NCBI GenBank assembly: GCA_046597055.1
Contig: JBKJLC010000222.1
Location: 25,586 to 89,585, forward strand
DNA length: 64,000 bases
Reading direction: 5' to 3'
Source of the DNA: Kofleriaceae bacterium
GTDB taxonomy: Bacteria > Myxococcota_A > Polyangia > Haliangiales > Haliangiaceae
The notes below the pieces were generated by a model, which did no database searches, was not told the DNA's origin, and saw only the letters and a list, made by a program, of their open reading frames with translations. This document shows, one piece after another, positions 34,929 to 48,308 of the stretch (positions are counted from its first letter, which is position 1; every line of letters starts with the position of its first letter). Position numbers and translations under genes: made by a program.

Positions 34929-36392
34929 TCAGGGACCGTAGAGGGTGCCCTGCGGGGCGCCGGTTTGCATGAGGCGCAGCAGCTCGCGGCCCAGCGCGAC
35001 CTCGACGTCGAGCGCGGGCTCGGCCAGCGCCGCGGCGTCGGCCTCGAAGCGATCGGCCGCGGCCTGCATGATCGCCAGTGCCGCGTCCCGGTCATTGCCG
35101 TACTGGTCGGCGGCGTCGTGCATGCCCGACACCAGCAGCGCCAGCGCGGTCGTGCGCGCGGTCGACGCCTGCGCGAACCACTGGCCGCGGTCGTCGAGGT
35201 TGCCGTCACGCGCGACGTGGAGCGCGCTGGTCCGCGTCACGCCGGCCGGGTTCCGCCACGACAGGTCGAGGTCGGCGGCGAGCCCGTCGAGCGCGGCCAG
35301 CTCGGTCTCGCGCAGCGACACCAGCAGGGCGCCGCGTCGCTTCGACAGGAACACGGTCGCGACCTCGAGGCTGGGATCCTCGGCGAAGCCGGCCGGGAAG
35401 CCGTAGCCATCGGCGATCGCCAGTCCGGGCGCCGGACGCACCGCGACCGCGAGGTCGTAGGCGATCGGCGCGGTGAACCACGGGAACTCGTCCGCGATCA
35501 GCGCGCTGACGTGCTCGGGCCTCTGGAGGCTGAACGCGTTGGCGCCGCGCACCTGCGCCATGCTCTGCAGCACCTCGGGGCCGACGCCGAGCCCGAGCGC
35601 GAGCACGGTCAGGTGCACGCCGTCGTCAGCACCGGCCGCCGCCATCTGCTCGAACTCGCTGGGCGCGGTCGCGCCGACGTTGGGCTGCACGTCGGTGAAC
35701 AGCACCAGCCGCACGTTCTGCTGCCCGGCGGCGCGCGCCTGCCGGCCGAGCTCGTAGGCGCGGCGCAGGCCGCCCTCCATGTCGGTCGACCCGGCCTCGC
35801 GCAGCTGATCGATCGCCGCGCTGATGCGGGCCTGGTCCGAGCCGCGGGTCAGGCCCAGCGGGGTCGCGATCTCGCTGCCGTACGTGACGATGGCGACCTG
35901 ATCGCCGGCGTCGACCTGATCGGCGAGCGCGTGCAGGGTCGCGCGCGACAGCCAGCCCGGGGTCGGGTACGCCTCGCTGCCGTTGCTCCAGCCCATCGAT
36001 CCCGACACGTCGACCGTGAAGATGAAGGTGGTCGGCGGCCGCACGAACCGGTCGGGATCGACGTTCGACGACATCCCGACCTGCAGCCAGCCGCGCGCGG
36101 CACCGGCCCGGTCGGGCGCGACCCCGGCCGCGGCCCGCAGGCACAGCGTGTCGTTGCAGGGCGCGCCGGTGAGCCCGAGGTCGTGCTCGGCGAACATGCC
36201 CTCGACCAGCAGCGCGCCGGGAGGCGGGACCCGGCCGCTCGCGATCAGCTCGCGCGCCAGGCTCATGTCTTTCACGCCGCCCGGGGTCGCGCCGAAGTCG
36301 CCGCCGGTGGGGCTGCCACTGTAGGCATCCACCGAACCGCACGCGGCCACCAGGGTCAGGAATAGATACCGGAGCGAGCGGAGCGGCTTCAT
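34929..36392 (-). CDS. vWA-domain lipoprotein (YfbK-like)
   Basis: LVAAC lipobox; FTVDVSGSM, GSTDMEGGL, LVLFTD. Confidence 0.85.
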   Translation of the reverse strand: MKPLRSLRYLFLTLVAACGSVDAYSGSPTGGDFGATPGGVKDMSLARELIASGRVPPPGALLVEGMFAEHDLGLTGAPCNDTLCLRAAAGVAPDRAGAARGWLQVGMSSNVDPDRFVRPPTTFIFTVDVSGSMGWSNGSEAYPTPGWLSRATLHALADQVDAGDQVAIVTYGSEIATPLGLTRGSDQARISAAIDQLREAGSTDMEGGLRRAYELGRQARAAGQQNVRLVLFTDVQPNVGATAPSEFEQMAAAGADDGVHLTVLALGLGVGPEVLQSMAQVRGANAFSLQRPEHVSALIADEFPWFTAPIAYDLAVAVRPAPGLAIADGYGFPAGFAEDPSLEVATVFLSKRRGALLVSLRETELAALDGLAADLDLSWRNPAGVTRTSALHVARDGNLDDRGQWFAQASTARTTALALLVSGMHDAADQYGNDRDAALAIMQAAADRFEADAAALAEPALDVEVALGRELLRLMQTGAPQGTLYGP

Positions 36393-36406
36393 GAGCCGTG
36401 GCCCAT

Positions 36407-36422
36407 CGCATCCGGCGTACCA
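36407..36422 (-). promoter_or_regulatory. Putative sigma54 promoter
   Basis: Minus strand TGGTACGCCGGATGCG (GG-N10-GC), 14 nt before ATG 36392. Confidence 0.55.
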
Positions 36423-36517
36423 GGTGACCGCCACGGGTTCCGCATCGTTGGCGCCGGCGCGCTGCGATCGCCCGGCAGGTTCCGGACATCCATGTCACGG
36501 GCCTATACTCGCGCGCG

Positions 36518-39500
36518 ATGGAACCTGACGCGCCCGCTCCTCGCCGTGGTTCGGCCACCGCTCGCCGGCGCCGCAAGGTCGCGTGGACCAAGCGGCTGCG
36601 CCGGGTCGGGATGGCCTGGCAGAACGCGCTCGAGATCATGCGCGCCGGCCGGCTCACCGCCCCCTACGGCGCGCCGTTCGAGGTCGTCCACGCGACCCCC
36701 ATCTACCGGCTGCGTCATTACCGCAACAGCGACACCACGCCCGCCACCACGCCGCCGCTGCTGCTGGTGCCGCCGCTCATGGTCGCCAGCGAGGTCTACG
36801 ACATCGCGCCCGATGTGAGCGCGATCGCGTACCTGACCCGCAGCGGCGTCGACGTGTGGGTCGTCGACTTCGGCGCCCCCGAGCGCGAGGAGGGCGGCCT
36901 CGAGCGCACGCTCGACGATCACGTGCGCGGGGTGTCCGAGGCGATCGACCAGGTCCGCCAGCGCACTGGCCAGGACGTCCACCTCGCCGGCTACTCGCAG
37001 GGCGGCATGTTTGCCTACCAGGCGGCGGCCTACCGGCGCAGCGCTGGCATCGCGTCGATCATCACGATGGGCAGCCCGGTCGACATCCACCGCACGGTGC
37101 CGCTCGCCGAGCAGCTGGTCGAGCGCATGGTGTCGGGGCTGTCGCGCGCGATCGCGGGACCACTCGCGCACATCGACCGCCTGCCCGGCCGGGTCACCTC
37201 GACCGGCTTCAAGCTGCTGAGCGTGCGCAAGGAGGCCGGCCAGCTGGTCGAGTTCGTGCGCAAGCTGCACGACCGCTCGGCGCTCGAGAAGCGCGAGGCC
37301 CGGCGCTTGTTCCTGGGCGGTGCCGGCTTCGTGGCCTGGCCGGGCCCGGCGCTGCGCAAGTTCATCAGCGAGATCGTGGTCGCCAACCGGATGACCTCGG
37401 GCGGCATCGTGATCGACGGCCACACCACGACCCTGGCCGACATCGACTCGCCGATCCTCTACTTCTTCGGCGAGCGCGACACCATGGGCCGGCCCGCGGC
37501 GGTGCGCGGCATCCGCAAGGCGGCGCCGGCGGCCGACATGATCTACGAGGTGGCGGTCAAGGCCGGCCACTTCGGGCTGGTGGTCGGCTCGACCGCGCTG
37601 ACCGTGACCTGGCCGACCGTGGTCGAGTGGATCCGCTGGCAAGCCGGCGACGGCCCCCGCCCGGCGCGGATGGTCGAGCCCGGCGCCACCACGTCGATCC
37701 CGACGATCGGCCCCGACGACGAGGACGCGGACGACGACGTCGAGGACGATGACATCGACACCGCGTTCGGCGAGATGCAGTTCGATCTCGAGCTGGTGCA
37801 GGACGTGCTGGGCAAGACCGCGCGCGCGGTGATGGAGCGGGTCGGCGACGTCACCCAGGACGTGTCCGACTACCTCGACAACCTGCGCTGGCAGGTGCCG
37901 CGCCTGCACCGGCTGCGCAGCCTGCGCGACGACACCGCGATCTCGCTCGGCAAGGAGCTCGCCGAACAGGCCCGCGAGATCCCCGATCAGACCTTCTTCA
38001 TGTGGCGCGACCGCGCGTTCACGTACGCCGACGCCAACCGCCGGGTCGACGCGGTGGTCCGCGGCCTCATCCAGTCCGGCGTCCGCCCCGGCCACAAGGT
38101 CGCGGTCGTGATGCAGAGCCGGCCCAGCTACCTGTCGGTGGTCGCCGCGCTGTCGCGGCTGGGCGCGGTCGCGGTGCTGATCGCGCCGGCGACGCTGGCG
38201 TCGGCGCTCACCCGCGCGCTCGACGTCGGCGAGGCCGAGCGGGTGATCACGGATCCCGAGACCGTGGCGGCGGTGCGGACCAGCTGGGCCGGGCCGCTGT
38301 TCGTCCTCGGGGCCGCCCACGACCAGCGCGCGCTGCCGCCCGGCGTGGTCGACCTCGAGCAGATCGATCCCGACGCGGTCGTGATGCCGACCTGGTTCCG
38401 TCCGGATCCCGGACGCGCGCGCGACCTGGCGCTGGTGTTCGTGTCCGGCGGTCGCTTCGAGACCCCGCGGGCCAGCCGCATCACCAACCGGCGCTGGGCG
38501 TTCTCGGCGCTCGGCGCCGCCGCCACCTGCACGCTGACCAACCGCGACACCGTGTATTGCTGCCTGCCGCTGCACCACCCGACCGCGATGCTGGTCGCCG
38601 CCGGCAGCGCGCTGTGCGGCGGCGCGCGGCTGGCGCTGGCGTCGCGGTTCGCGCCCGACGTGTTCTGGGCGGAGGTCCGGCGCTACGGCGTCACCGTGGT
38701 CTTCTACGCCGGCGAGATGTGCCGCTCGCTGGTGCGGGCGCCGTTCGCGATCGGCGAGCAGAACCATCCGGTCCGCCTGTTCGCCGGCTCCGGCATGCGC
38801 CCGGATCTCTGGCGCAAGCTGACCGAGCGGTTCGGCTCGGGCGTGCTCGAGTTCTACGCGTCGACCGAGGCGTCGGCCGTGCTCGCCAACGCCTCGGGCG
38901 AGAAGATCGGCGCGGTCGGCCGGCCGCTGCCCGGCAGCCCCGAGCTGGCGATCGCGGCCTACGACTTCGACGCCGACGACCTGGTGCGCGACGGCAACGG
39001 CCGGGTGACCCGGGCCCGGGTCGATCAGCCCGGCATGCTGATCGCGCGCCTCGACACCGCGCGCGGCATCGCCGATCTCGCGCATATCGCGCCGACCCGG
39101 CTGCTGCGCGACGCGCTGGCCCCGGGCGACACCTGGTACGCCAGCGGCGATCTGCTCAAGATCGACGGCGACGGCGACCACTGGTTCGTCGACCGGCACG
39201 GCGACATGATCCGGACCACGGGCGGACCGGTCGCCAGCCGCCTGATCGAGGACGCGCTCCACCAGGTCCCGGGCGTCGACGCGTGCGTCGCGATCGGGTT
39301 GGCCGACGTCGAGCGCGTCGGCAAGCAGGTCGCCGCGGCCGCGTTCGCGCTCGCGCCCGGCGCCACGCTGGACTTGACCGCGCTCGGCCAGGCGATCGCG
39401 ACCCTGCCCGACCACGCCCGCCCGCGCCGGCTACGCCGGGTCGAGGCGATCCCGATGACCGACGGCTTCCGCCCGCTCAAGAAGCCGATCCGCGACCTCG

Positions 39501-39613
39501 GCTTCGGTGACGGTCCCGACGTCTGGGCCTGGGACCCGGCGACCGCGAGCTTGCGCACCACCGCCCGCACCGCCAGTCCGCCGCCGGCGCCGACCCACGA
39601 CGCCCGGCCCTGA
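36518..39613 (+). CDS. Fusion of PhaC-like alpha/beta hydrolase and FATP-like acyl-CoA synthetase (Rv1683-like)
   Basis: PLLLVPP, AGYSQGG, GERD, GHFG; acidic linker; YCCLPLHH, FYAGEMCR, EFYASTE, SGDLL, FVDRHGD. Confidence 0.88.
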   Translation: MEPDAPAPRRGSATARRRRKVAWTKRLRRVGMAWQNALEIMRAGRLTAPYGAPFEVVHATPIYRLRHYRNSDTTPATTPPLLLVPPLMVASEVYDIAPDVSAIAYLTRSGVDVWVVDFGAPEREEGGLERTLDDHVRGVSEAIDQVRQRTGQDVHLAGYSQGGMFAYQAAAYRRSAGIASIITMGSPVDIHRTVPLAEQLVERMVSGLSRAIAGPLAHIDRLPGRVTSTGFKLLSVRKEAGQLVEFVRKLHDRSALEKREARRLFLGGAGFVAWPGPALRKFISEIVVANRMTSGGIVIDGHTTTLADIDSPILYFFGERDTMGRPAAVRGIRKAAPAADMIYEVAVKAGHFGLVVGSTALTVTWPTVVEWIRWQAGDGPRPARMVEPGATTSIPTIGPDDEDADDDVEDDDIDTAFGEMQFDLELVQDVLGKTARAVMERVGDVTQDVSDYLDNLRWQVPRLHRLRSLRDDTAISLGKELAEQAREIPDQTFFMWRDRAFTYADANRRVDAVVRGLIQSGVRPGHKVAVVMQSRPSYLSVVAALSRLGAVAVLIAPATLASALTRALDVGEAERVITDPETVAAVRTSWAGPLFVLGAAHDQRALPPGVVDLEQIDPDAVVMPTWFRPDPGRARDLALVFVSGGRFETPRASRITNRRWAFSALGAAATCTLTNRDTVYCCLPLHHPTAMLVAAGSALCGGARLALASRFAPDVFWAEVRRYGVTVVFYAGEMCRSLVRAPFAIGEQNHPVRLFAGSGMRPDLWRKLTERFGSGVLEFYASTEASAVLANASGEKIGAVGRPLPGSPELAIAAYDFDADDLVRDGNGRVTRARVDQPGMLIARLDTARGIADLAHIAPTRLLRDALAPGDTWYASGDLLKIDGDGDHWFVDRHGDMIRTTGGPVASRLIEDALHQVPGVDACVAIGLADVERVGKQVAAAAFALAPGATLDLTALGQAIATLPDHARPRRLRRVEAIPMTDGFRPLKKPIRDLGFGDGPDVWAWDPATASLRTTARTASPPPAPTHDARP

Positions 39614-39742: not shown

Positions 39743-39755
39743 GTTCAGTCCCGGG

Positions 39756-39827
39756 TGAGGGCGGTCAGACTCGAACTGACAACCAGCGGATTAAGAGTCC
39801 GATGCTCTACCATTGAGCTACGCCCCC
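39756..39827 (-). tRNA. tRNA-Lys (anticodon CUU), CCA not encoded
   Basis: GGGGGCGTAGCTCAATGGTAGAGCATCGGACTCTTAATCCGCTGGTTGTCAGTTCGAGTCTGACCGCCCTCA folds as cloverleaf. Confidence 0.95.
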
Positions 39828-39869
39828 GGAATTACTTACTTCTTAGTCTAGTCTCGGTACCTTTTCAAG

Positions 39870-39943
39870 TGAGCTCGGGGCGACTCGAACGCCCGACCTA
39901 CGGGTTCGAAGCCCGGCGCTCTATCCAACTGAGCTACGAGCCC
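39870..39943 (-). tRNA. tRNA-Arg (anticodon UCG), CCA not encoded
   Basis: GGGCTCGTAGCTCAGTTGGATAGAGCGCCGGGCTTCGAACCCGTAGGTCGGGCGTTCGAGTCGCCCCGAGCTCA; loop CT-TCG-AA. Confidence 0.93.
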
Positions 39944-40258: not shown

Positions 40259-43200
40259 GTGTTCAGCAAAGACCGCCGCATCAACCTGGTCCTGTCCCTC
40301 TTCTTCTTGCTGCTGAGCGCCTGCGGAGGCCTCGGCAGCGGCTGCGGCTGCACGACGCAGCCGTTGCCGGCCGGCGGCCTTCCCAGCGACCAGACCATCG
40401 AAGGCGGCGGTCAGATCCGGGTGACCCGGGCCGGCTTCGCCAAGCTCACCTCGGTCATCCCCGCGCTGCTCAACGATCAGCTGTCCGACGGCTTCTGCAT
40501 CGGGCAGCAGAGCATCCTCGGCGCCAACGTCTGCTACGAGAACCAGGGACCGACCTGCAACCCGGGTTGCCGGGTCAACGTCGCGCTGCAGGAGACCCGC
40601 CTGCAGGTCACCAACGCGCAGACGCTCAACGTCTACATACGCGCCAACATCAGCGTGCCGGTCCGCATCGACCCGCCGATCTTCGGCGCGTGCACGATGA
40701 CGGTCACCGCCAACAACCTGTCGGCGGATCTCGATATCGGCTTCGGCATCAACCCGACCACCGGCGAGATGACGCTCCGGCTGAATCGCATCAACAGCTA
40801 CGACCTGTCGGGCGTCAGCTACTCGGGCTGCACCGTCATCAGCTTCCTCGCCTCGCTGGTCACCAGCCTGGCCGGCACCATCCTCGGCGAGTTCGTGGTC
40901 GACCTGCTGACCCCGACGATCAACGATCTCATCCAGGGCTTCCTGCCCAGCCCGCTCGGCATCGAGGGCATGGTCGACGTCGGCGCGCTGCTCGCGGGCG
41001 TGTCGCCCGGCACCGAAGGCTTCATGGAAGCGCGCATGGTCCCAGGCGGATACGTGTCGCTACAGAACAGCGGCATGTCGCTGGGGCTCATCACCGGCCT
41101 CAACGCCGACCAGGACCCGACCACCCGCACCGCGCAGCTCGACAGCGAGCCGGCCTACTGCGTCCCGCCGATCCCGGCGCCGGACTTCGCGGCCGCGCCC
41201 GCCAGCCTGCCCCGCGTCGCCGGCCGCAACACCTTCACCTTGGCCGCGGCCGAGGAGTTCCTCGGCATGCCCGAGCCGGCCGACGATCTCGTGATCGGCC
41301 TGTCGGAGACGATGCTCGACCTCGCCGGTCACCACCTGGTCACCTCGGGCGGCATGTGCCTCGGCGTCGGCACCTCGCTGATCGCCCAGCTCAAGCTCGG
41401 CACGATCGGCCTGCTGGTCCCGTCGCTCGGCGAGCTCGGCAAGGGCGACGAGCCGCTCTTGCTGGTCACCCGGCCCCAGCGCGCGCTCGACTTCACGGTC
41501 GGCGAGGGCACCGAGGCGTCGCCCGCGTTCACGATCCACATCAAGGAGTTCGAGGTCGACTTCTACGGCTTCATCTACGAGCGCTACACGCGCGCGTTCA
41601 CGATGTCGCTGGACCTCGACGTCGGCGTGAACCTCGAGTTCGTGCAGATGCCGGGCATGCCGGCCCAGGTCAAGCCAGTCCTGGTCGGCCTGACCTCGTC
41701 GAACATCGACATCACGGTGCTCAACAACGAGTTCGTGAAGGAGACCCGCCAGCAGCTCGAGGCGGTGCTGCCGACCGTGTTCGACCTGGCGCTGCCGCTG
41801 CTCGGCGACGGCCTCGGGCCGATCGACGTGCCGTCGTTCGCTGGCTTCACGCTCAACAACCTGCGGGTCCAGAAGGTCGTCACCGCCCAGGACGAGTTCG
41901 TGGCGATCTACGCGTCGCTGGGCGCGTCGCAGATGATGCGCACCACCGCGGCCGATCAGTATCCGTCGCTCGGCCCGGTGGTCGACCGCCTCGACCAGGG
42001 CGTCGGCATGCCGAGCTGGCCGTCCCGGGTCGAGACCCCGATCGCGAGCCTGCGCTCGGTGGTGGTGCCGACCCCGGCCCAGATCCGCGGCGCGCTGATG
42101 GGCGAGGCCGGCGGCGCGCTGCCGACCGTGACCATCGAGGTCGCGCACCGCGACGACCACGGCCGCGAGCTCGAGTGGAGCTACAACCTCGACAACGGCC
42201 TGTGGCGCCCGTACTCGTCGGCCACGCCGCTGGTGATCGCCGACCGCGCGTTCGCCTGGCAGGGCCACTACACGATCGGCCTGCACGCCCGGGTCAAAGG
42301 CGACTACCGGACCACCGCGGTCCAGCGGATCGACCTGCCGGTCACGATCGACTCGATGGGCCCGAAGATCCGCGTCGACGAGGCGCGGCTGACCGACCGC
42401 GGCCTGTACGTGCCGGCCACCGACGCGGTGTACGAGGACGGCCTCGAGTGGGCGTTCGGCACGATCACCTCGGACCAGCCGGTCACCGGCTGGCAGCCGT
42501 CGCCGACCCTGGCTCGCGCCCAGGTCACCGCGCTCGAGACCGACGGCGAGATCCTGGTCTTCGTCCGCGACCCGAGCGGCAACGTCTCGATGGCGATCGC
42601 CCGCAGCAACTTCCACGGCGCGGCCGGCGAGGGCGGCTGCAGCTGCCGCTCGACCGGCGGGCCCGACACCGGCTCGATCCTGCTGCTGATGCTGGTCGCC
42701 GGCGTCCTGCTGGGGGCGGGGCGGTCGCGCCGCCCTTTTGCGCGGCGCGCGGTCGTCGCCCTCGGGGCGGTCGCGCACAAGGCTAGCCGGACCGTGCGGG
42801 CGGGCGGGCGCCTGGCGCCGATGCTGGCGGTGTGGGCCGGCCTGAGCCTGGCGCTGTCGATGGTCCCGGGCTGCTCGTGCGGCTCGGCCGCTGGCCACGC
42901 CTGCGAGCTGTCCGAGGACTGCGACGACCTCGAGTGCCCCGAGGGCCAGATCGCGATCTGCTTCGAGGGCGAGTGCCTGTGCACCGACGACGTGCCGTAC
43001 GGCAAGATCGGCCTGATGTCCGACGTCGCGGTGGCGCCCAACGCCGACGTGGTGGTGTCGGCCTACGCCCAGAACCACGGCGACCTGGTGGTCGCGCGCT
43101 TTGCCGGCGCCGGCCGGATCGCCGACGAGGCCTGGGAGTTCGTCGACGGCGTCCCCGACGGCCCGGTCGCCCTGCCCGAGTCCGATGTGCGCGGCGGCAT

Positions 43201-44242
43201 CCTCGACCCCGGCCCCGACGTCGGCCTCTACACCTCGGTGGCGATCGGCACCGCCGACGTGCCGATGGTCGCGTACCACGACAAGACGACCGGCTCGCTC
43301 AAGTTCGCGGCGAAGTCCGGGGGCGCCTGGCAGAACCACGTGGTCGATGCCGGCACCGGCACCATCGCCCCCGAGATCGGCGGCGAGCAGGTCGGGCTCT
43401 ACAACGCGCTGTCGCTGCGCACCGACGACGGTCGCCCGGCGATCGCGTACCTCGCGATGATCTCGCAGGGCGACGGCCTGGTGGTCGGCGAGGTCCGCTT
43501 CGCCCAGGCCACCAGCGCCTTGCCGGCCGGCTCCACCGACTGGCAGGTGACCGTGATCGACATGATGGCGCTGCCGCCGGTCGACCCGCTGAGCCCCGAC
43601 CCGTACCCGATCCCGGCCGGCATCGGCCTGTTCATCGAGATGGCCCGCGACGCCGCCGGCAACCCGGCGATCGTCTACTACGACCGCCAGGGCGGCAACC
43701 TCAAGCTCGCGCGGTGGAGCACGGCCAACAGCCGCTTCGACCTCAGCGTCATTGCCGGCCAGACCGGCGATGACGGCTGGTACCCGTCGATCGCCTTCGA
43801 CGCCCAGGACGTGGCCCACATCGCCTACCAGGGCGCCGACCACGACGACGTCTTCTATCTCAACACCATGTCGAACACGCGCGAGCTGGTCGACGACGGC
43901 TACCGGATCGTCGGCACCACTCCCGAGGGGCTGCCAAAGCCGGAGTTCCACTTCGTCGGCTCCGACACGCAGATCGTGACGACGTCGACCGGGCCGTACG
44001 TGATCTACCAGGACTCGACCAGCCACGAGCTGCTGTACGCGAGCAAGCAGGGTGACGACTGGGTCCCGACGCCCCTGGCCGGCAACGAGATGACGTTCCA
44101 GGGCGCCTACGGCTTCTATGCGTCCGCGGTCGCCGGCGGCAACGAGGTGGTCGTCTCGACCTGGGTGATCCACCAGCAGCTCGTCGACAACTGGGTCGAG
44201 GTGTTCCGGATCCCGCTCGGCACCGGCCGCATCCTGGACTGA
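40259..44242 (+). CDS. Large surface lipoprotein: BPI/LBP(TULIP)-like region, Ig-like region, internal MYXO-CTERM, second lipoprotein signal, beta-propeller-like C-terminal domain
   Basis: GAGGGG SD and GTG; LSAC lipobox; GGCSCRSTGG-TM-RSRR near aa 792-824; LAVWAGLSLALSMVPGCSC near aa 856-874; repeated GLYTSVAI/PAIAY blades. Confidence 0.85.
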   Translation: MFSKDRRINLVLSLFFLLLSACGGLGSGCGCTTQPLPAGGLPSDQTIEGGGQIRVTRAGFAKLTSVIPALLNDQLSDGFCIGQQSILGANVCYENQGPTCNPGCRVNVALQETRLQVTNAQTLNVYIRANISVPVRIDPPIFGACTMTVTANNLSADLDIGFGINPTTGEMTLRLNRINSYDLSGVSYSGCTVISFLASLVTSLAGTILGEFVVDLLTPTINDLIQGFLPSPLGIEGMVDVGALLAGVSPGTEGFMEARMVPGGYVSLQNSGMSLGLITGLNADQDPTTRTAQLDSEPAYCVPPIPAPDFAAAPASLPRVAGRNTFTLAAAEEFLGMPEPADDLVIGLSETMLDLAGHHLVTSGGMCLGVGTSLIAQLKLGTIGLLVPSLGELGKGDEPLLLVTRPQRALDFTVGEGTEASPAFTIHIKEFEVDFYGFIYERYTRAFTMSLDLDVGVNLEFVQMPGMPAQVKPVLVGLTSSNIDITVLNNEFVKETRQQLEAVLPTVFDLALPLLGDGLGPIDVPSFAGFTLNNLRVQKVVTAQDEFVAIYASLGASQMMRTTAADQYPSLGPVVDRLDQGVGMPSWPSRVETPIASLRSVVVPTPAQIRGALMGEAGGALPTVTIEVAHRDDHGRELEWSYNLDNGLWRPYSSATPLVIADRAFAWQGHYTIGLHARVKGDYRTTAVQRIDLPVTIDSMGPKIRVDEARLTDRGLYVPATDAVYEDGLEWAFGTITSDQPVTGWQPSPTLARAQVTALETDGEILVFVRDPSGNVSMAIARSNFHGAAGEGGCSCRSTGGPDTGSILLLMLVAGVLLGAGRSRRPFARRAVVALGAVAHKASRTVRAGGRLAPMLAVWAGLSLALSMVPGCSCGSAAGHACELSEDCDDLECPEGQIAICFEGECLCTDDVPYGKIGLMSDVAVAPNADVVVSAYAQNHGDLVVARFAGAGRIADEAWEFVDGVPDGPVALPESDVRGGILDPGPDVGLYTSVAIGTADVPMVAYHDKTTGSLKFAAKSGGAWQNHVVDAGTGTIAPEIGGEQVGLYNALSLRTDDGRPAIAYLAMISQGDGLVVGEVRFAQATSALPAGSTDWQVTVIDMMALPPVDPLSPDPYPIPAGIGLFIEMARDAAGNPAIVYYDRQGGNLKLARWSTANSRFDLSVIAGQTGDDGWYPSIAFDAQDVAHIAYQGADHDDVFYLNTMSNTRELVDDGYRIVGTTPEGLPKPEFHFVGSDTQIVTTSTGPYVIYQDSTSHELLYASKQGDDWVPTPLAGNEMTFQGAYGFYASAVAGGNEVVVSTWVIHQQLVDNWVEVFRIPLGTGRILD

Positions 44243-44347
44243 GCGCAGGCTCGGAGGCGGCCGGCAGCCCCCGCGGCAGGATCCCGGGTGTGTTGCGGGG
44301 CGGCCGCCGCTGTACAGGGGATCCCCGGCCTGTCATGCTTCAGGCCG

Positions 44348-45037
<690 letters not shown>

Positions 45038-45040
45038 CGG

Positions 45041-45661
45041 TCAGGGCAGCAGCATCTCCGCGCCCATGGTCACGAACATGCCGAGCTGACCGGCGCTGCC
45101 GACGCCGTTGCCCAGCCAGGCGGTCCCGGCAAACGCGCTGAACGCGCCGACCACGCGCACGTCGTGACCGACCGCGGCGGCGACGCCGCCGCCGAGCTCG
45201 AGGCCGAGCGCGGCGCCCGACACGTCGTCCTGGTCGAAGCGGAGCACCCGGGCAAACCCACCCCCGCGCACGAACGGCGCGAACCCGTCCTGCCCGGGCA
45301 GCTCGCGGCGCACGCCCAGCGACAGGTCGCCGGCGAAGCCGTCGGTGACCCCGTGGTCGCAGCGCATCGCGTCGGGTGGGACCCGGCCGCAGCCGGCGCC
45401 GGGCTGGCCGAAGGTGAAGGCGACCCCGCCGTCGAACCAGTCGCGGTCGGCGAGGCGGTAGAGGTAGCGGCCGCCGACCCGCAGGCCGCCGGGGGTGTGG
45501 CCACCGCCGCCGGCGGCGCCCACCTCGGCCGCCAGCGCGACCTGCGGGTCCTGGCCGCTGCGCTCGAGCGGCTGGTCGGTGATCGCGGGCTCGTCGGCAT
45601 GCGCGGGGGCGACCCCGATCAGGGTGACGCCGAGGACGGCAAGGACGGTCGACCGGATCAT
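45041..45661 (-). CDS. Small outer-membrane beta-barrel-like protein
   Basis: Signal peptide ending AHA; amphipathic strands (LRVGGRYLYRL, PFVRGGG). Confidence 0.65.
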   Translation of the reverse strand: MIRSTVLAVLGVTLIGVAPAHADEPAITDQPLERSGQDPQVALAAEVGAAGGGGHTPGGLRVGGRYLYRLADRDWFDGGVAFTFGQPGAGCGRVPPDAMRCDHGVTDGFAGDLSLGVRRELPGQDGFAPFVRGGGFARVLRFDQDDVSGAALGLELGGGVAAAVGHDVRVVGAFSAFAGTAWLGNGVGSAGQLGMFVTMGAEMLLP

Positions 45662-45717
45662 CCCCGCAGGGTAGGTGGGACCGGGGTGCGGGGCCATTTT
45701 TCGGCCCGGCCCCGGCG

Positions 45718-45746
45718 TTGAGCACGGCTCGCGAGGGGCATAGAGT
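45718..45746 (+). promoter_or_regulatory. sigma70-type promoter, leaderless geometry
   Basis: TTGAGC-N17-TAGAGT, then 7 nt to ATG 45754; no SD. Confidence 0.6.
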
Positions 45747-45753
45747 GCGCGCC

Positions 45754-46590
45754 ATGCGCAAGACCCTCCTGCTCTCGCTGAGCGCCCTCGCCTTTGCTGG
45801 CTGCGCCAAGCCGCGCACCTCGGCGGCGACCCAGCCGTCGCTCGCCGCGTTCGACCCGGCCCAGTCCGATCCCAAGGCGGTCGCGATCGTCGACGCCGCG
45901 GTCACCAAGCTCGGCGGCGCCGACAAGTGGACCGGCCTCAAGCAGCTGCGCTTCACGTCCGCGTACAAGCAGGACGGCGTGCTGAAGGCGCGCTTCGAGC
46001 ACGCCTGGGACCGCTGGAACGGCCGGCACCTGTTCATTTCGCTCGACATGCAGACCGCGGCGGCCGAGCCCGACGACCGCAAGTACCTCGAGGTCCGCCA
46101 CGACCTGTTCGACCAGGACGCGGCACCGTCGGCCAAGTACGACGGTGGCGCGCTGATGCGGGCCGAGGCCGGCACCCACGCCGACACCGCCACCAAGCAC
46201 CTGACCCAGGACCTCTACTTCCTGGCGATCGTCCACAAGCTGAAGGATCCGGGCGTGAAGCTCGCGGTCGACAACGCCGAGGTCGTGATCACCGACTCGG
46301 AGCTGTGCAAGCCGTCGTGCACCTCGGTCAAGGTCACCTTCGATCCCGCGATCGGGACCGACACCTGGTACGTCAGCTTCAACAACGAGTCCCAGCTGCC
46401 CCAGGTGGTCGAGCTGCAGAAGGGCGCCGGCCGCATCGGCTACGAGCTGGCGGGCTGGGTCGATGCCGGCGGGCTCAAGTGGCCCAGCAAGCTGCAGAAC
46501 ATCGGCTACAAGGGCGAGGTCATCGAGCTCACCGACATCGCGGTCGGCGACGTCGACGACGGGCTGTTCGTGCCCAGCGTCGGGCACTGA
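45754..46590 (+). CDS. Lipoprotein, beta-rich (LolA-like/DUF6503-like fold possible)
   Basis: FAGC lipobox; LGGADKW, KLKDPGVKL, VKVTFDPAIGTD. Confidence 0.7.
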   Translation: MRKTLLLSLSALAFAGCAKPRTSAATQPSLAAFDPAQSDPKAVAIVDAAVTKLGGADKWTGLKQLRFTSAYKQDGVLKARFEHAWDRWNGRHLFISLDMQTAAAEPDDRKYLEVRHDLFDQDAAPSAKYDGGALMRAEAGTHADTATKHLTQDLYFLAIVHKLKDPGVKLAVDNAEVVITDSELCKPSCTSVKVTFDPAIGTDTWYVSFNNESQLPQVVELQKGAGRIGYELAGWVDAGGLKWPSKLQNIGYKGEVIELTDIAVGDVDDGLFVPSVGH

Positions 46591-46662
46591 TCGCGCGTCC
46601 GAACGCCGGTTGCGCCACGGCGTACACGCGCGGTGGTAGCCTGGCGGACCTCCGGAGGTTCC

Positions 46663-47607
46663 ATGGCCAAGCCCCTGGTCTACAACGCGACCCTGCTCGA
46701 GCGCGTCGACGTCACCGACGCGCTCACCCTGTTTCGGGTCATGCCCGACGAGCGTCCGGCGCCAGGGTGGTTCACCCCCGGCCAGTACTGCGTGCTCGGC
46801 ATGAACAACCCGGCCAAGCCCGAGCTGGGCTCGGTGCGGCGCTCGATGTCGATCGCGTCGGCGCCCGAGGACGATGGCGCGATCGAGTTCTACATCCGCT
46901 TCGTCGCGAAGCCGGAGAGCGAGAACCCGCTCACCCACCTCTTGTGGACGCTGAAGGACGGCGACCGCATGTACATGCGGCCGGTCGCGGCGGGCGTGTT
47001 CACGGTCAAGGACACCGTCGGCCTCGACGACCCGCGGTTCCGGGTGGCGGTCGCCGCCGGCACCGGCTCGGCGCCGTTCGTGAGCATGGTGCGCAGCGAG
47101 CTGCGCCGTGACCCGGCGGCCGATCTGTCGAAGTACGTCATCCTGCACGGCGCGTCGTACCCGTCGGATCTCGGCCACCGCGACGAGCTGCTCGGCATGG
47201 CCGCACGCAACGGCCTGCACTACTGGGGCACGGTCAGCCGGCCCAAGGAAGCCCCGGACTGGTCGGGCGACACCGGCCGGGTCGAGAACTACTTCGGCGG
47301 GGAGCGGCTGGCCGAGCTCGAGCGCCGGCTCGGGATGACGCCGGGCGGCTTCACCCCGGCGACCGCGGCGGTGTTGATCTGCGGGCTGCAGGGCACGATC
47401 GGCACGACCATCACCCACCTGTGCTCGCGCGGCTTCGTGCCCGACCACAAGCGGATGCGCGAGGCGCTGGGCGCCCCGCCCGAGGTGCCGGCCAGCCTGT
47501 TCTACGAGCAGTACGACACCGAGCCGGTGATCAACATCAAGGATCCGGCCGTGGTCGATCCGCTCAAGGCCGAGCTCGCGTCGGCGCTCGCCCGCCAGGG
47601 TCGCTGA
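46663..47607 (+). CDS. fpr: Ferredoxin/flavodoxin-NADP+ reductase family protein
   Basis: FTPGQY, RRSMSIAS, AAGTGSAPFVSM, LICG; GGAGG SD. Confidence 0.85.
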   Translation: MAKPLVYNATLLERVDVTDALTLFRVMPDERPAPGWFTPGQYCVLGMNNPAKPELGSVRRSMSIASAPEDDGAIEFYIRFVAKPESENPLTHLLWTLKDGDRMYMRPVAAGVFTVKDTVGLDDPRFRVAVAAGTGSAPFVSMVRSELRRDPAADLSKYVILHGASYPSDLGHRDELLGMAARNGLHYWGTVSRPKEAPDWSGDTGRVENYFGGERLAELERRLGMTPGGFTPATAAVLICGLQGTIGTTITHLCSRGFVPDHKRMREALGAPPEVPASLFYEQYDTEPVINIKDPAVVDPLKAELASALARQGR

Positions 47608-47609
47608 CG

Positions 47610-48308
47610 GTGGCGCCGGTCGCGTTCGTCGCCGGGGCGACCGGGTTCGTCGGGCACGCGGTGGTGACCACGCTGCGCAAACGCGGCGTGCGAACGCTGG
47701 CCCACGTGCGGCCGGACTCGTCGAAGCTGGCGGTCTGGCGCGAGCGCTTCGCGCAGGGCGGCGCCGAGATCGACACCACGCCCTGGGAGCAGGGCGCGCT
47801 GACCGAGACCCTGCGCGCGCAGGCGGTCACCCACGTGTTCGTGCTGATCGGCACGACCCGGGCGCGGGCGAAGGCCGACGGGGTCGAGGGCGACATCTAC
47901 GAGGCGATCGACGTGGGCCTGACCCGGCTGCTGGCCGGCGCCGCCGCCGCCGCCGGGACCCGGCCGCGGCTGGTGTACCTGTCGTCGATCGGCGCGTCCG
48001 AGCAGGCCGCGTCGGCCTACCTGCGGGCCCGCGGCCGCGCCGAGGCGGCGGTGCGCGCCGCCGGCGTGCCGTGGGTGAGCGCGCGCCCGTCGTTCATCAG
48101 CGGGCCCGGCCGGGAGGACGCCCGGCCCGGCGAGCGGATCGCCGCCACCGTCGCCGACGGTGCGCTCGCGCTGGTCGGGTTCCTCGGCGGCCGCCGCGTG
48201 CGCGCGAAGTACGCGTCGACCACGCCCGACGCCCTGGCGGTCGCGCTGGTGCGACTCGGCCTCGACGACGCCCGGGACGGCGTCTTCGAGGGCGCCGACC
48301 TGCGCTGA
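47610..48308 (+). CDS. NAD(P)H-binding atypical SDR / epimerase-like oxidoreductase
   Basis: FVAGATGFVG, VYLSSIGA, YLRAR, RPSFISG. Confidence 0.85.
   Translation: MAPVAFVAGATGFVGHAVVTTLRKRGVRTLAHVRPDSSKLAVWRERFAQGGAEIDTTPWEQGALTETLRAQAVTHVFVLIGTTRARAKADGVEGDIYEAIDVGLTRLLAGAAAAAGTRPRLVYLSSIGASEQAASAYLRARGRAEAAVRAAGVPWVSARPSFISGPGREDARPGERIAATVADGALALVGFLGGRRVRAKYASTTPDALAVALVRLGLDDARDGVFEGADLR

Follow-up and report, generated by a model that had tools for sequence, protein, structure and literature searches.

A predicted BPI/CETP-type double TULIP fold in a myxobacterial protein with internal sorting signals and a repeat partner module

A window of 64,000 nucleotides from a Kofleriaceae bacterium (GCA_046597055.1, contig JBKJLC010000222.1, positions 25,586 to 89,585) carries an open reading frame (ORF) of 1327 amino acids (aa) with a GTG start at 40259..44242 on the forward strand, as do all parts of the gene described below. 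Profile searches and a predicted structure confirm that the first part of its product has the predicted double TULIP fold of the BPI/CETP type. The TULIP part is paired with a C-terminal repeat module (C-module), either in one chain or encoded by the adjacent gene. The protein is here read, at a probability of roughly one half, as a membrane-anchored lipid shuttle of the cell surface with a propeller partner.

Profile and structural evidence for the fold

The preliminary description of this DNA paired five peptides by eye with motifs of human BPI and proposed a two-domain TULIP protein of the BPI/LBP/CETP type. The five peptides lie in a single ORF in the order given (aa 50-71, 343-368, 378-393, 510-538 and 545-554), and the resemblance exceeds chance, as a profile of the family matches BPI at E 3.6e-12. 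HMMER pairs the first three segments as had been done by eye; the last two fall outside the profile alignment, which spans BPI 3-328, and inside the structural alignment. The expected profile similarity was found with the family profile, which retrieves BPI, CETP and LBP from the PDB, and not with the query itself, which stays below the cut-offs of PF01273 and PF02886. Single-sequence searches of the TULIP part likewise gave no match in Pfam, NCBIfam or the PDB (E<=10).

A 46-row profile, with no rows picked via the BPI Pfam model, gave five matches among 177,635 PDB sequences. The top four were BPI (3.6e-12 and 4.1e-12), CETP (3.5e-5) and LBP (7.1e-5), and the fifth appeared only at E 0.066. 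A wide profile with distant members matched BPI at 1.9e-12 and LBP at 2.8e-6; because it included three rows found via PF02886, the profile was rebuilt without PF02886-derived rows, and the result held. Human BPI was the only match of a 30-row profile (E 5.8e-4), with both lobes in order, and BPI was not retrieved by a profile made of the nine solo-TULIP rows by themselves. When members were scanned individually against Pfam, all BPI-family matches were sub-threshold (3/30 and 3/31 members). A PF02886 search of 251 genomes of the phylum gave no match over the cut-off and four weak ones, three of which are family members. The distant homologue P0402, aligned to the family at 98% probability, passes PF02886 in its C-lobe region (28.5 against a cut-off of 23). 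In the ESM Atlas, Myxococcota clusters come first; a cluster made up largely of Bacteroidota, 57% of whose members carry PF02886, and a eukaryotic LBP/BPI cluster come next.

The predicted model is two-lobed, and its closest solved structure is BPI, whose chain aligns across both lobes (BPI 1-454 to model 27-535); single-TULIP structural matches cover model 33-216. The two-domain TULIP fold proposed earlier is thus borne out by profile search and predicted structure together. Each lobe is modelled as a helix, a long beta meander and a second helix, and a central sheet joins the two. The N-lobe (aa 46-228, 40394..40942), delimited by model secondary structure and the profile match to the BPI N-lobe, begins with a strand before helix A, the meander and helix B, and contains the conserved Cys92, Cys104, Cys145 and Cys191. 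The central sheet, a Pro-rich linker and the C-lobe follow (aa 235-555, 40961..41923) in the model and its alignment to BPI, and Cys301 and Cys367 are near-invariant in this part. The alternating hydrophobic strands are conserved across the family alignment, and the TULIP part would hold lipid in a putative hydrophobic lumen.

The gene is longer than had been described. Position 41925, given earlier as the end, does close the TULIP part, but the ORF continues for 772 codons; the internal MYXO-CTERM signal and the second module had been missed. Close homologues share the start position of the ORF and are 1270-1360 aa long. The GC content of the gene is close to that of the window, a promoter scan of the DNA found none, and no RNA runs were found in the database look-up.

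Predicted anchors, stalk and the fused or split layout

Three lipid anchors are predicted. The N-terminus has a lipoprotein-type signal peptide (aa 1-21) followed by Cys22 (40259..40324), recognised from sequence and alignment. Cys22 is invariant in the 266/266 aligned rows with a residue at that position, and 187 of 226 fused homologues have a lipobox-like start, in keeping with the lipid-anchored protein proposed earlier. After the TULIP part comes a stalk of about 200 residues (aa 590-785, 42026..42613). It is likely built of immunoglobulin (Ig)-like beta sandwiches, as suggested by weak matches to Big_13 (E 0.017, in P0402) and to a PDB entry (E 0.58).

The second predicted anchor is a MYXO-CTERM sorting signal (aa 791-825, 42629..42733), which scores 20.7 bits with TIGR03901 (cut-off 20) and comprises Cys794, Cys796, a hydrophobic helix and an Arg cluster. 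Its position is internal in the 1327-residue chain and terminal in short and split relatives; natural homologues of about 800 aa (many at 770-880 aa) stop just past it. The host genome encodes a myxosortase core (103.5 bits, cut-off 100). A separate observation is an exosortase fused to a CAAX-type protease in a myxobacterial genome (L078:85-1827, plus strand; G000:C108), with VPEID-CTERM exosortase E as the best model, over its cut-off.

A basic stretch separates the MYXO-CTERM signal from a second hydrophobic stretch that ends at Cys872. Homologue counts and split relatives mark this as a lipoprotein-like signal (aa 852-871 with Cys872, 42812..42874) and the putative third anchor; in the split relatives it is the N-terminal signal of a separate gene. 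A Cys-rich acidic linker (aa 873-912, 42875..42994) leads to the C-module (aa 913-1327, 42995..44239). Its profile shows six repeats, at about aa 917, 988, 1044, 1122, 1171 and 1233, spaced about 55-80 aa apart. Weak matches to BNR_4 (4/27 members) and to neuraminidase-type proteins (E 0.03-0.47) suggest that it is likely a beta-propeller; its trimmed profile found no match in the PDB.

The layout was counted with our own motif patterns in 419 proteins, among which close relatives are over-represented. TULIP part and C-module occur together in 226 of them, an internal CTERM-like motif is present in 205 of these 226, and 176 have the second signal as well. Among eight loci selected for a short TULIP ORF, five encode the C-module in the gene that follows; this gene has a signal of its own, and its start codon lies at -5 to +2 from the stop of the TULIP ORF. 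One of the eight ends at a contig end. The break in the split genes falls exactly between the MYXO-CTERM and the second signal. A frameshift artefact is an unlikely source of the five split pairs because all have that start position and their own signal; an artefact of this kind could account for one further locus (L074), in which the C-module itself is broken and which was left out of the count. Solo TULIP proteins of about 560 aa with a CTERM and no other domain exist among the distant forms. In two loci (L035:1667-9042 and L037:2732-9893, both minus strand), a TULIP-propeller fusion, a solo propeller lipoprotein and a solo TULIP-like lipoprotein are encoded consecutively. From the split loci and the short forms, the long form is interpreted as a fusion of two exported proteins with both predicted sorting signals retained.

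Other arrangements were also seen. Two very acidic solo double-TULIP proteins, each with a CTERM-like tail, stand in tandem at L032:2429-5712 (plus strand). Giant frames of 2366 and 3065 aa (L063:1-7098 and L064:1602-10796, both minus strand) contain a double-TULIP-like region amid many Ig repeats, and the L064 protein also has a weak peptidase match.

Spread, locus and neighbouring genes

The best 120 matches, the window's own record excepted, are 55-83% identical over the region and share the GTG/ATG start. Those with names belong to Kofleriaceae, Myxococcales, Myxococcota or Deltaproteobacteria, as do eight named loci; the closest named relatives are Kofleriaceae (Haliangiales, Myxococcota) or Myxococcales, in agreement with the myxobacterial host suspected earlier. 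Single-protein search matched 149 of 401 genomes of the phylum and profile search 271, about 118 of them at E < 1e-45 by hand count and the others as distant forms. Clustered at 50% identity, 2,049 clusters match at E<=0.001. In a quick, unrooted tree in which eukaryotic rows are absent, the order of the window forms one supported group and the solo forms another. Given the wide spread and these lineage-coherent groups, there is no reason, as far as a tree without eukaryotic rows can tell, to invoke a recent transfer from eukaryotes.

A divergent tRNA-Lys(CTT) and tRNA-Arg(TCG) pair (39754..39943, reverse strand) lies upstream and marks a fixed locus. Of 10 loci from close relatives, two of which are seemingly one contig, 9 have the pair and the tenth is cut by its contig end; none of 8 distant loci has it. 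The other neighbours vary. In the neighbour scan, which covered 55 of 104 picked ORFs in addition to the TULIP ORFs, no neighbours beyond the tRNA pair were shared across distant loci.

The host genome has one full copy of the gene and one distant TULIP-like lipoprotein (L031:4756-6393, minus strand; G000:C145). The latter is 545 aa long, carries a Glucodextran_B Ig domain at its N-terminus and matches the family profile weakly, in three parts (E 0.0017). Close to the tRNAs, on their upstream side, a 1031-aa protein combines a PhaC-like alpha/beta hydrolase with an acyl-CoA synthetase domain (window 36518-39613, plus strand); L046 also has a comparable gene upstream. A VWA-domain lipoprotein is encoded at window 34929-36434 (minus strand), and in L040 a related gene immediately follows the TULIP gene. 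The downstream stretch (window 44288-48308) holds phoU and genes for an exported, uncharacterised protein of 200 aa, for a lipoprotein, for a protein resembling ferredoxin-NADP reductase and for another enzyme; the last of these genes are also present in L045, L047 and L048.

Possible functions and known systems

Statements taken from the papers cited here refer to the portions of their text that were available. Lipid carriage is the common function of the TULIP fold (PMC5507252), and TipA, a bacterial double TULIP of Bdellovibrio, binds bilayers and is purified together with phosphatidylethanolamine (PE), phosphatidylglycerol (PG) and cardiolipin (bioRxiv 10.1101/2025.09.09.675085). Proteins with a MYXO-CTERM are cut by MrtX and displayed at the surface (PMC11980579). 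These three lines favour, at about 0.5, a lipid shuttle that is anchored at the surface and has a propeller as its partner. By analogy, lipid shuttling by the TULIP part is plausible, and the protein likely works as a lipid carrier of the BPI/CETP type rather than as an antibiotic BPI. The chain would be exported by Sec and lipidated at Cys22. Cleavage would then occur at two sites, at the internal MYXO-CTERM by myxosortase and at Cys872 by signal peptidase II, to give a propeller lipoprotein and a TULIP-stalk protein with an anchor at each end. Type II secretion would carry both products to the surface, like other MYXO-CTERM proteins. There, the hydrophobic tube could extract phospholipid from touched membranes, such as prey debris or vesicles, for delivery to the outer membrane of the producing cell, and the propeller might dock on the TULIP part or gate it, in the manner of TipB with TipA.

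Several points weigh against the surface shuttle. An internal MYXO-CTERM with a second helix behind it may escape cleavage, and the available text of two sorting papers has no passage on internal tags (PMC11980579; 10.1101/2023.06.07.544157). Among 176 second signals, 97 carry Pro at -2, which makes for a non-canonical lipobox. Two of the eight short-TULIP loci have no partner gene in the available stretch, 130 of the 401 phylum genomes have no match in the profile search, and no conserved lipid-metabolism genes occur among the scanned neighbours.

The preliminary description had suggested that the protein recognises prey lipopolysaccharide (LPS) or permeabilises membranes as BPI does. BPI acts and kills through a cationic N-lobe (PMC8187252), whereas the N-lobe here, counted from its sequence, has 9 K/R against 13 D/E (net -4, isoelectric point 4.6), both lobes together are net -26, and 286/288 homologues are not net positive (2/288 are); these charges speak against that suggestion. 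Since similar acidity is usual among CTERM-like proteins of the host genome, it appears to be no special trait of the TULIP protein, yet the BPI killing mechanism would lack its basis. A BPI-like weapon or LPS sensor that attaches to the lipid A of prey and makes their outer membrane permeable when cells touch is therefore considered unlikely, despite BPI being the nearest solved structure, cultured Kofleriaceae lysing Gram-negative prey best (PMC8397742), and TipA, which is secreted into prey, inserting into and disrupting bilayers of palmitoyl-oleoyl-phosphatidylcholine (POPC) and LPS (bioRxiv 10.1101/2025.09.09.675085). Cultured Kofleriaceae are predators that lyse prey (PMC8397742), and a feeding role for the gene is plausible on this family-level evidence, which has no tie to the gene itself.

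Envelope upkeep by an uncut chain is possible but doubtful. The helix pair would sit in the inner membrane and the N-terminal lipid in the outer membrane, so that TULIP part and stalk ferry phospholipid across the periplasm. Anchoring of the TULIP-stalk part at both ends would suit this, and the single full copy in the host genome, the fixed tRNA locus and the supported order-level group would suit a housekeeping gene. Nevertheless, natural short and solo forms finish with an ordinary C-terminal MYXO-CTERM, which is a surface tag, no Mla/Pqi/Lpt-type genes were found among the scanned neighbours, and the genomes with no match count against upkeep as well. Lipid exchange or adhesion between kin, with the propeller as the recognition element for a neighbour and lipid handed over by the TULIP part beside outer membrane exchange, appears very unlikely. 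The sorting route is that of TraA (PMC11980579) and a binding role suits propeller-type repeats, but no traAB-like gene occurs among the scanned neighbours and the TULIP part is conserved at the level given above for the best 120 matches.

A bolder extension of the surface shuttle, put forward as speculation with rather low odds, is a two-part lipid-harvesting machine widespread in Myxococcota: a doubly lipid-anchored BPI-fold tube and a propeller, often made as one polyprotein cut by myxosortase and signal peptidase II, would strip lipid from prey membranes in contact feeding. The fused form would test whether a sorting tag works mid-chain, releasing two lipoproteins from one gene. For the question of how predatory bacteria take up prey lipid, the family offers a candidate that can be tested in soil predators, which are abundant, and with its clear profile homology to BPI/LBP/CETP it could serve as a bacterial outgroup when the origin of these immune and lipid-transfer proteins is traced.

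BPI-like two-lobed proteins are already known in bacteria. Literature searches, with most subscription papers outside their coverage, found no publication that describes a BPI-like protein from myxobacteria, and TipA was the only experimentally studied bacterial BPI-like double TULIP found. TipA and TipB (bd2538/bd2539; bioRxiv 10.1101/2025.09.09.675085) are described as a secreted hairpin dimer and a small, operonic C2-like partner; this description sets TipA apart from the myxobacterial protein, whose lipid anchors are predicted and whose repeat partner has 415 aa. The PDB profile and structural searches did not retrieve TipA, an absence that does not exclude likeness. The authors of the TipA study also observed fusions of double TULIPs with beta-rich domains; the available preprint text never mentions myxobacteria, and fusion figure EV2 and the preprints' supplements may include the family. 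DUF4403 (PMC6791001) and bacterial BPI-cluster members in AlphaFold DB, such as A0A2D5ZNG0 (PMC10584675), are likewise full-length two-lobed bacterial homologues of BPI, with no MYXO-CTERM or propeller partner described in the available text; the DUF4403 model had no match in scans of the query, family members, neighbours or P0402.

TraA and other surface proteins with a MYXO-CTERM (TIGR03901; PMC11980579) share the Cys motif, helix and Arg cluster of the tripartite tag and a genomic myxosortase, and one supplement file of that paper has no BPI or TULIP entry. Unlike in TraA-type proteins, the tag of the TULIP protein is internal, preceded by a lipoprotein N-terminus and followed by a second signal and 455 residues. 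The nearest known fold relatives are human BPI (PDB 1BP1/1EWF), LBP (4M4D) and CETP (2OBD), with PF01273 and PF02886. Compared with BPI, the myxobacterial protein is 12-14% identical, falls below the Pfam cut-offs and has an acidic rather than a cationic N-lobe; compared with all three, it has its own conserved Cys set, predicted membrane anchors, a stalk and a fused second module. The new features are the predicted anchors, the partner module and the fused-or-split layout.
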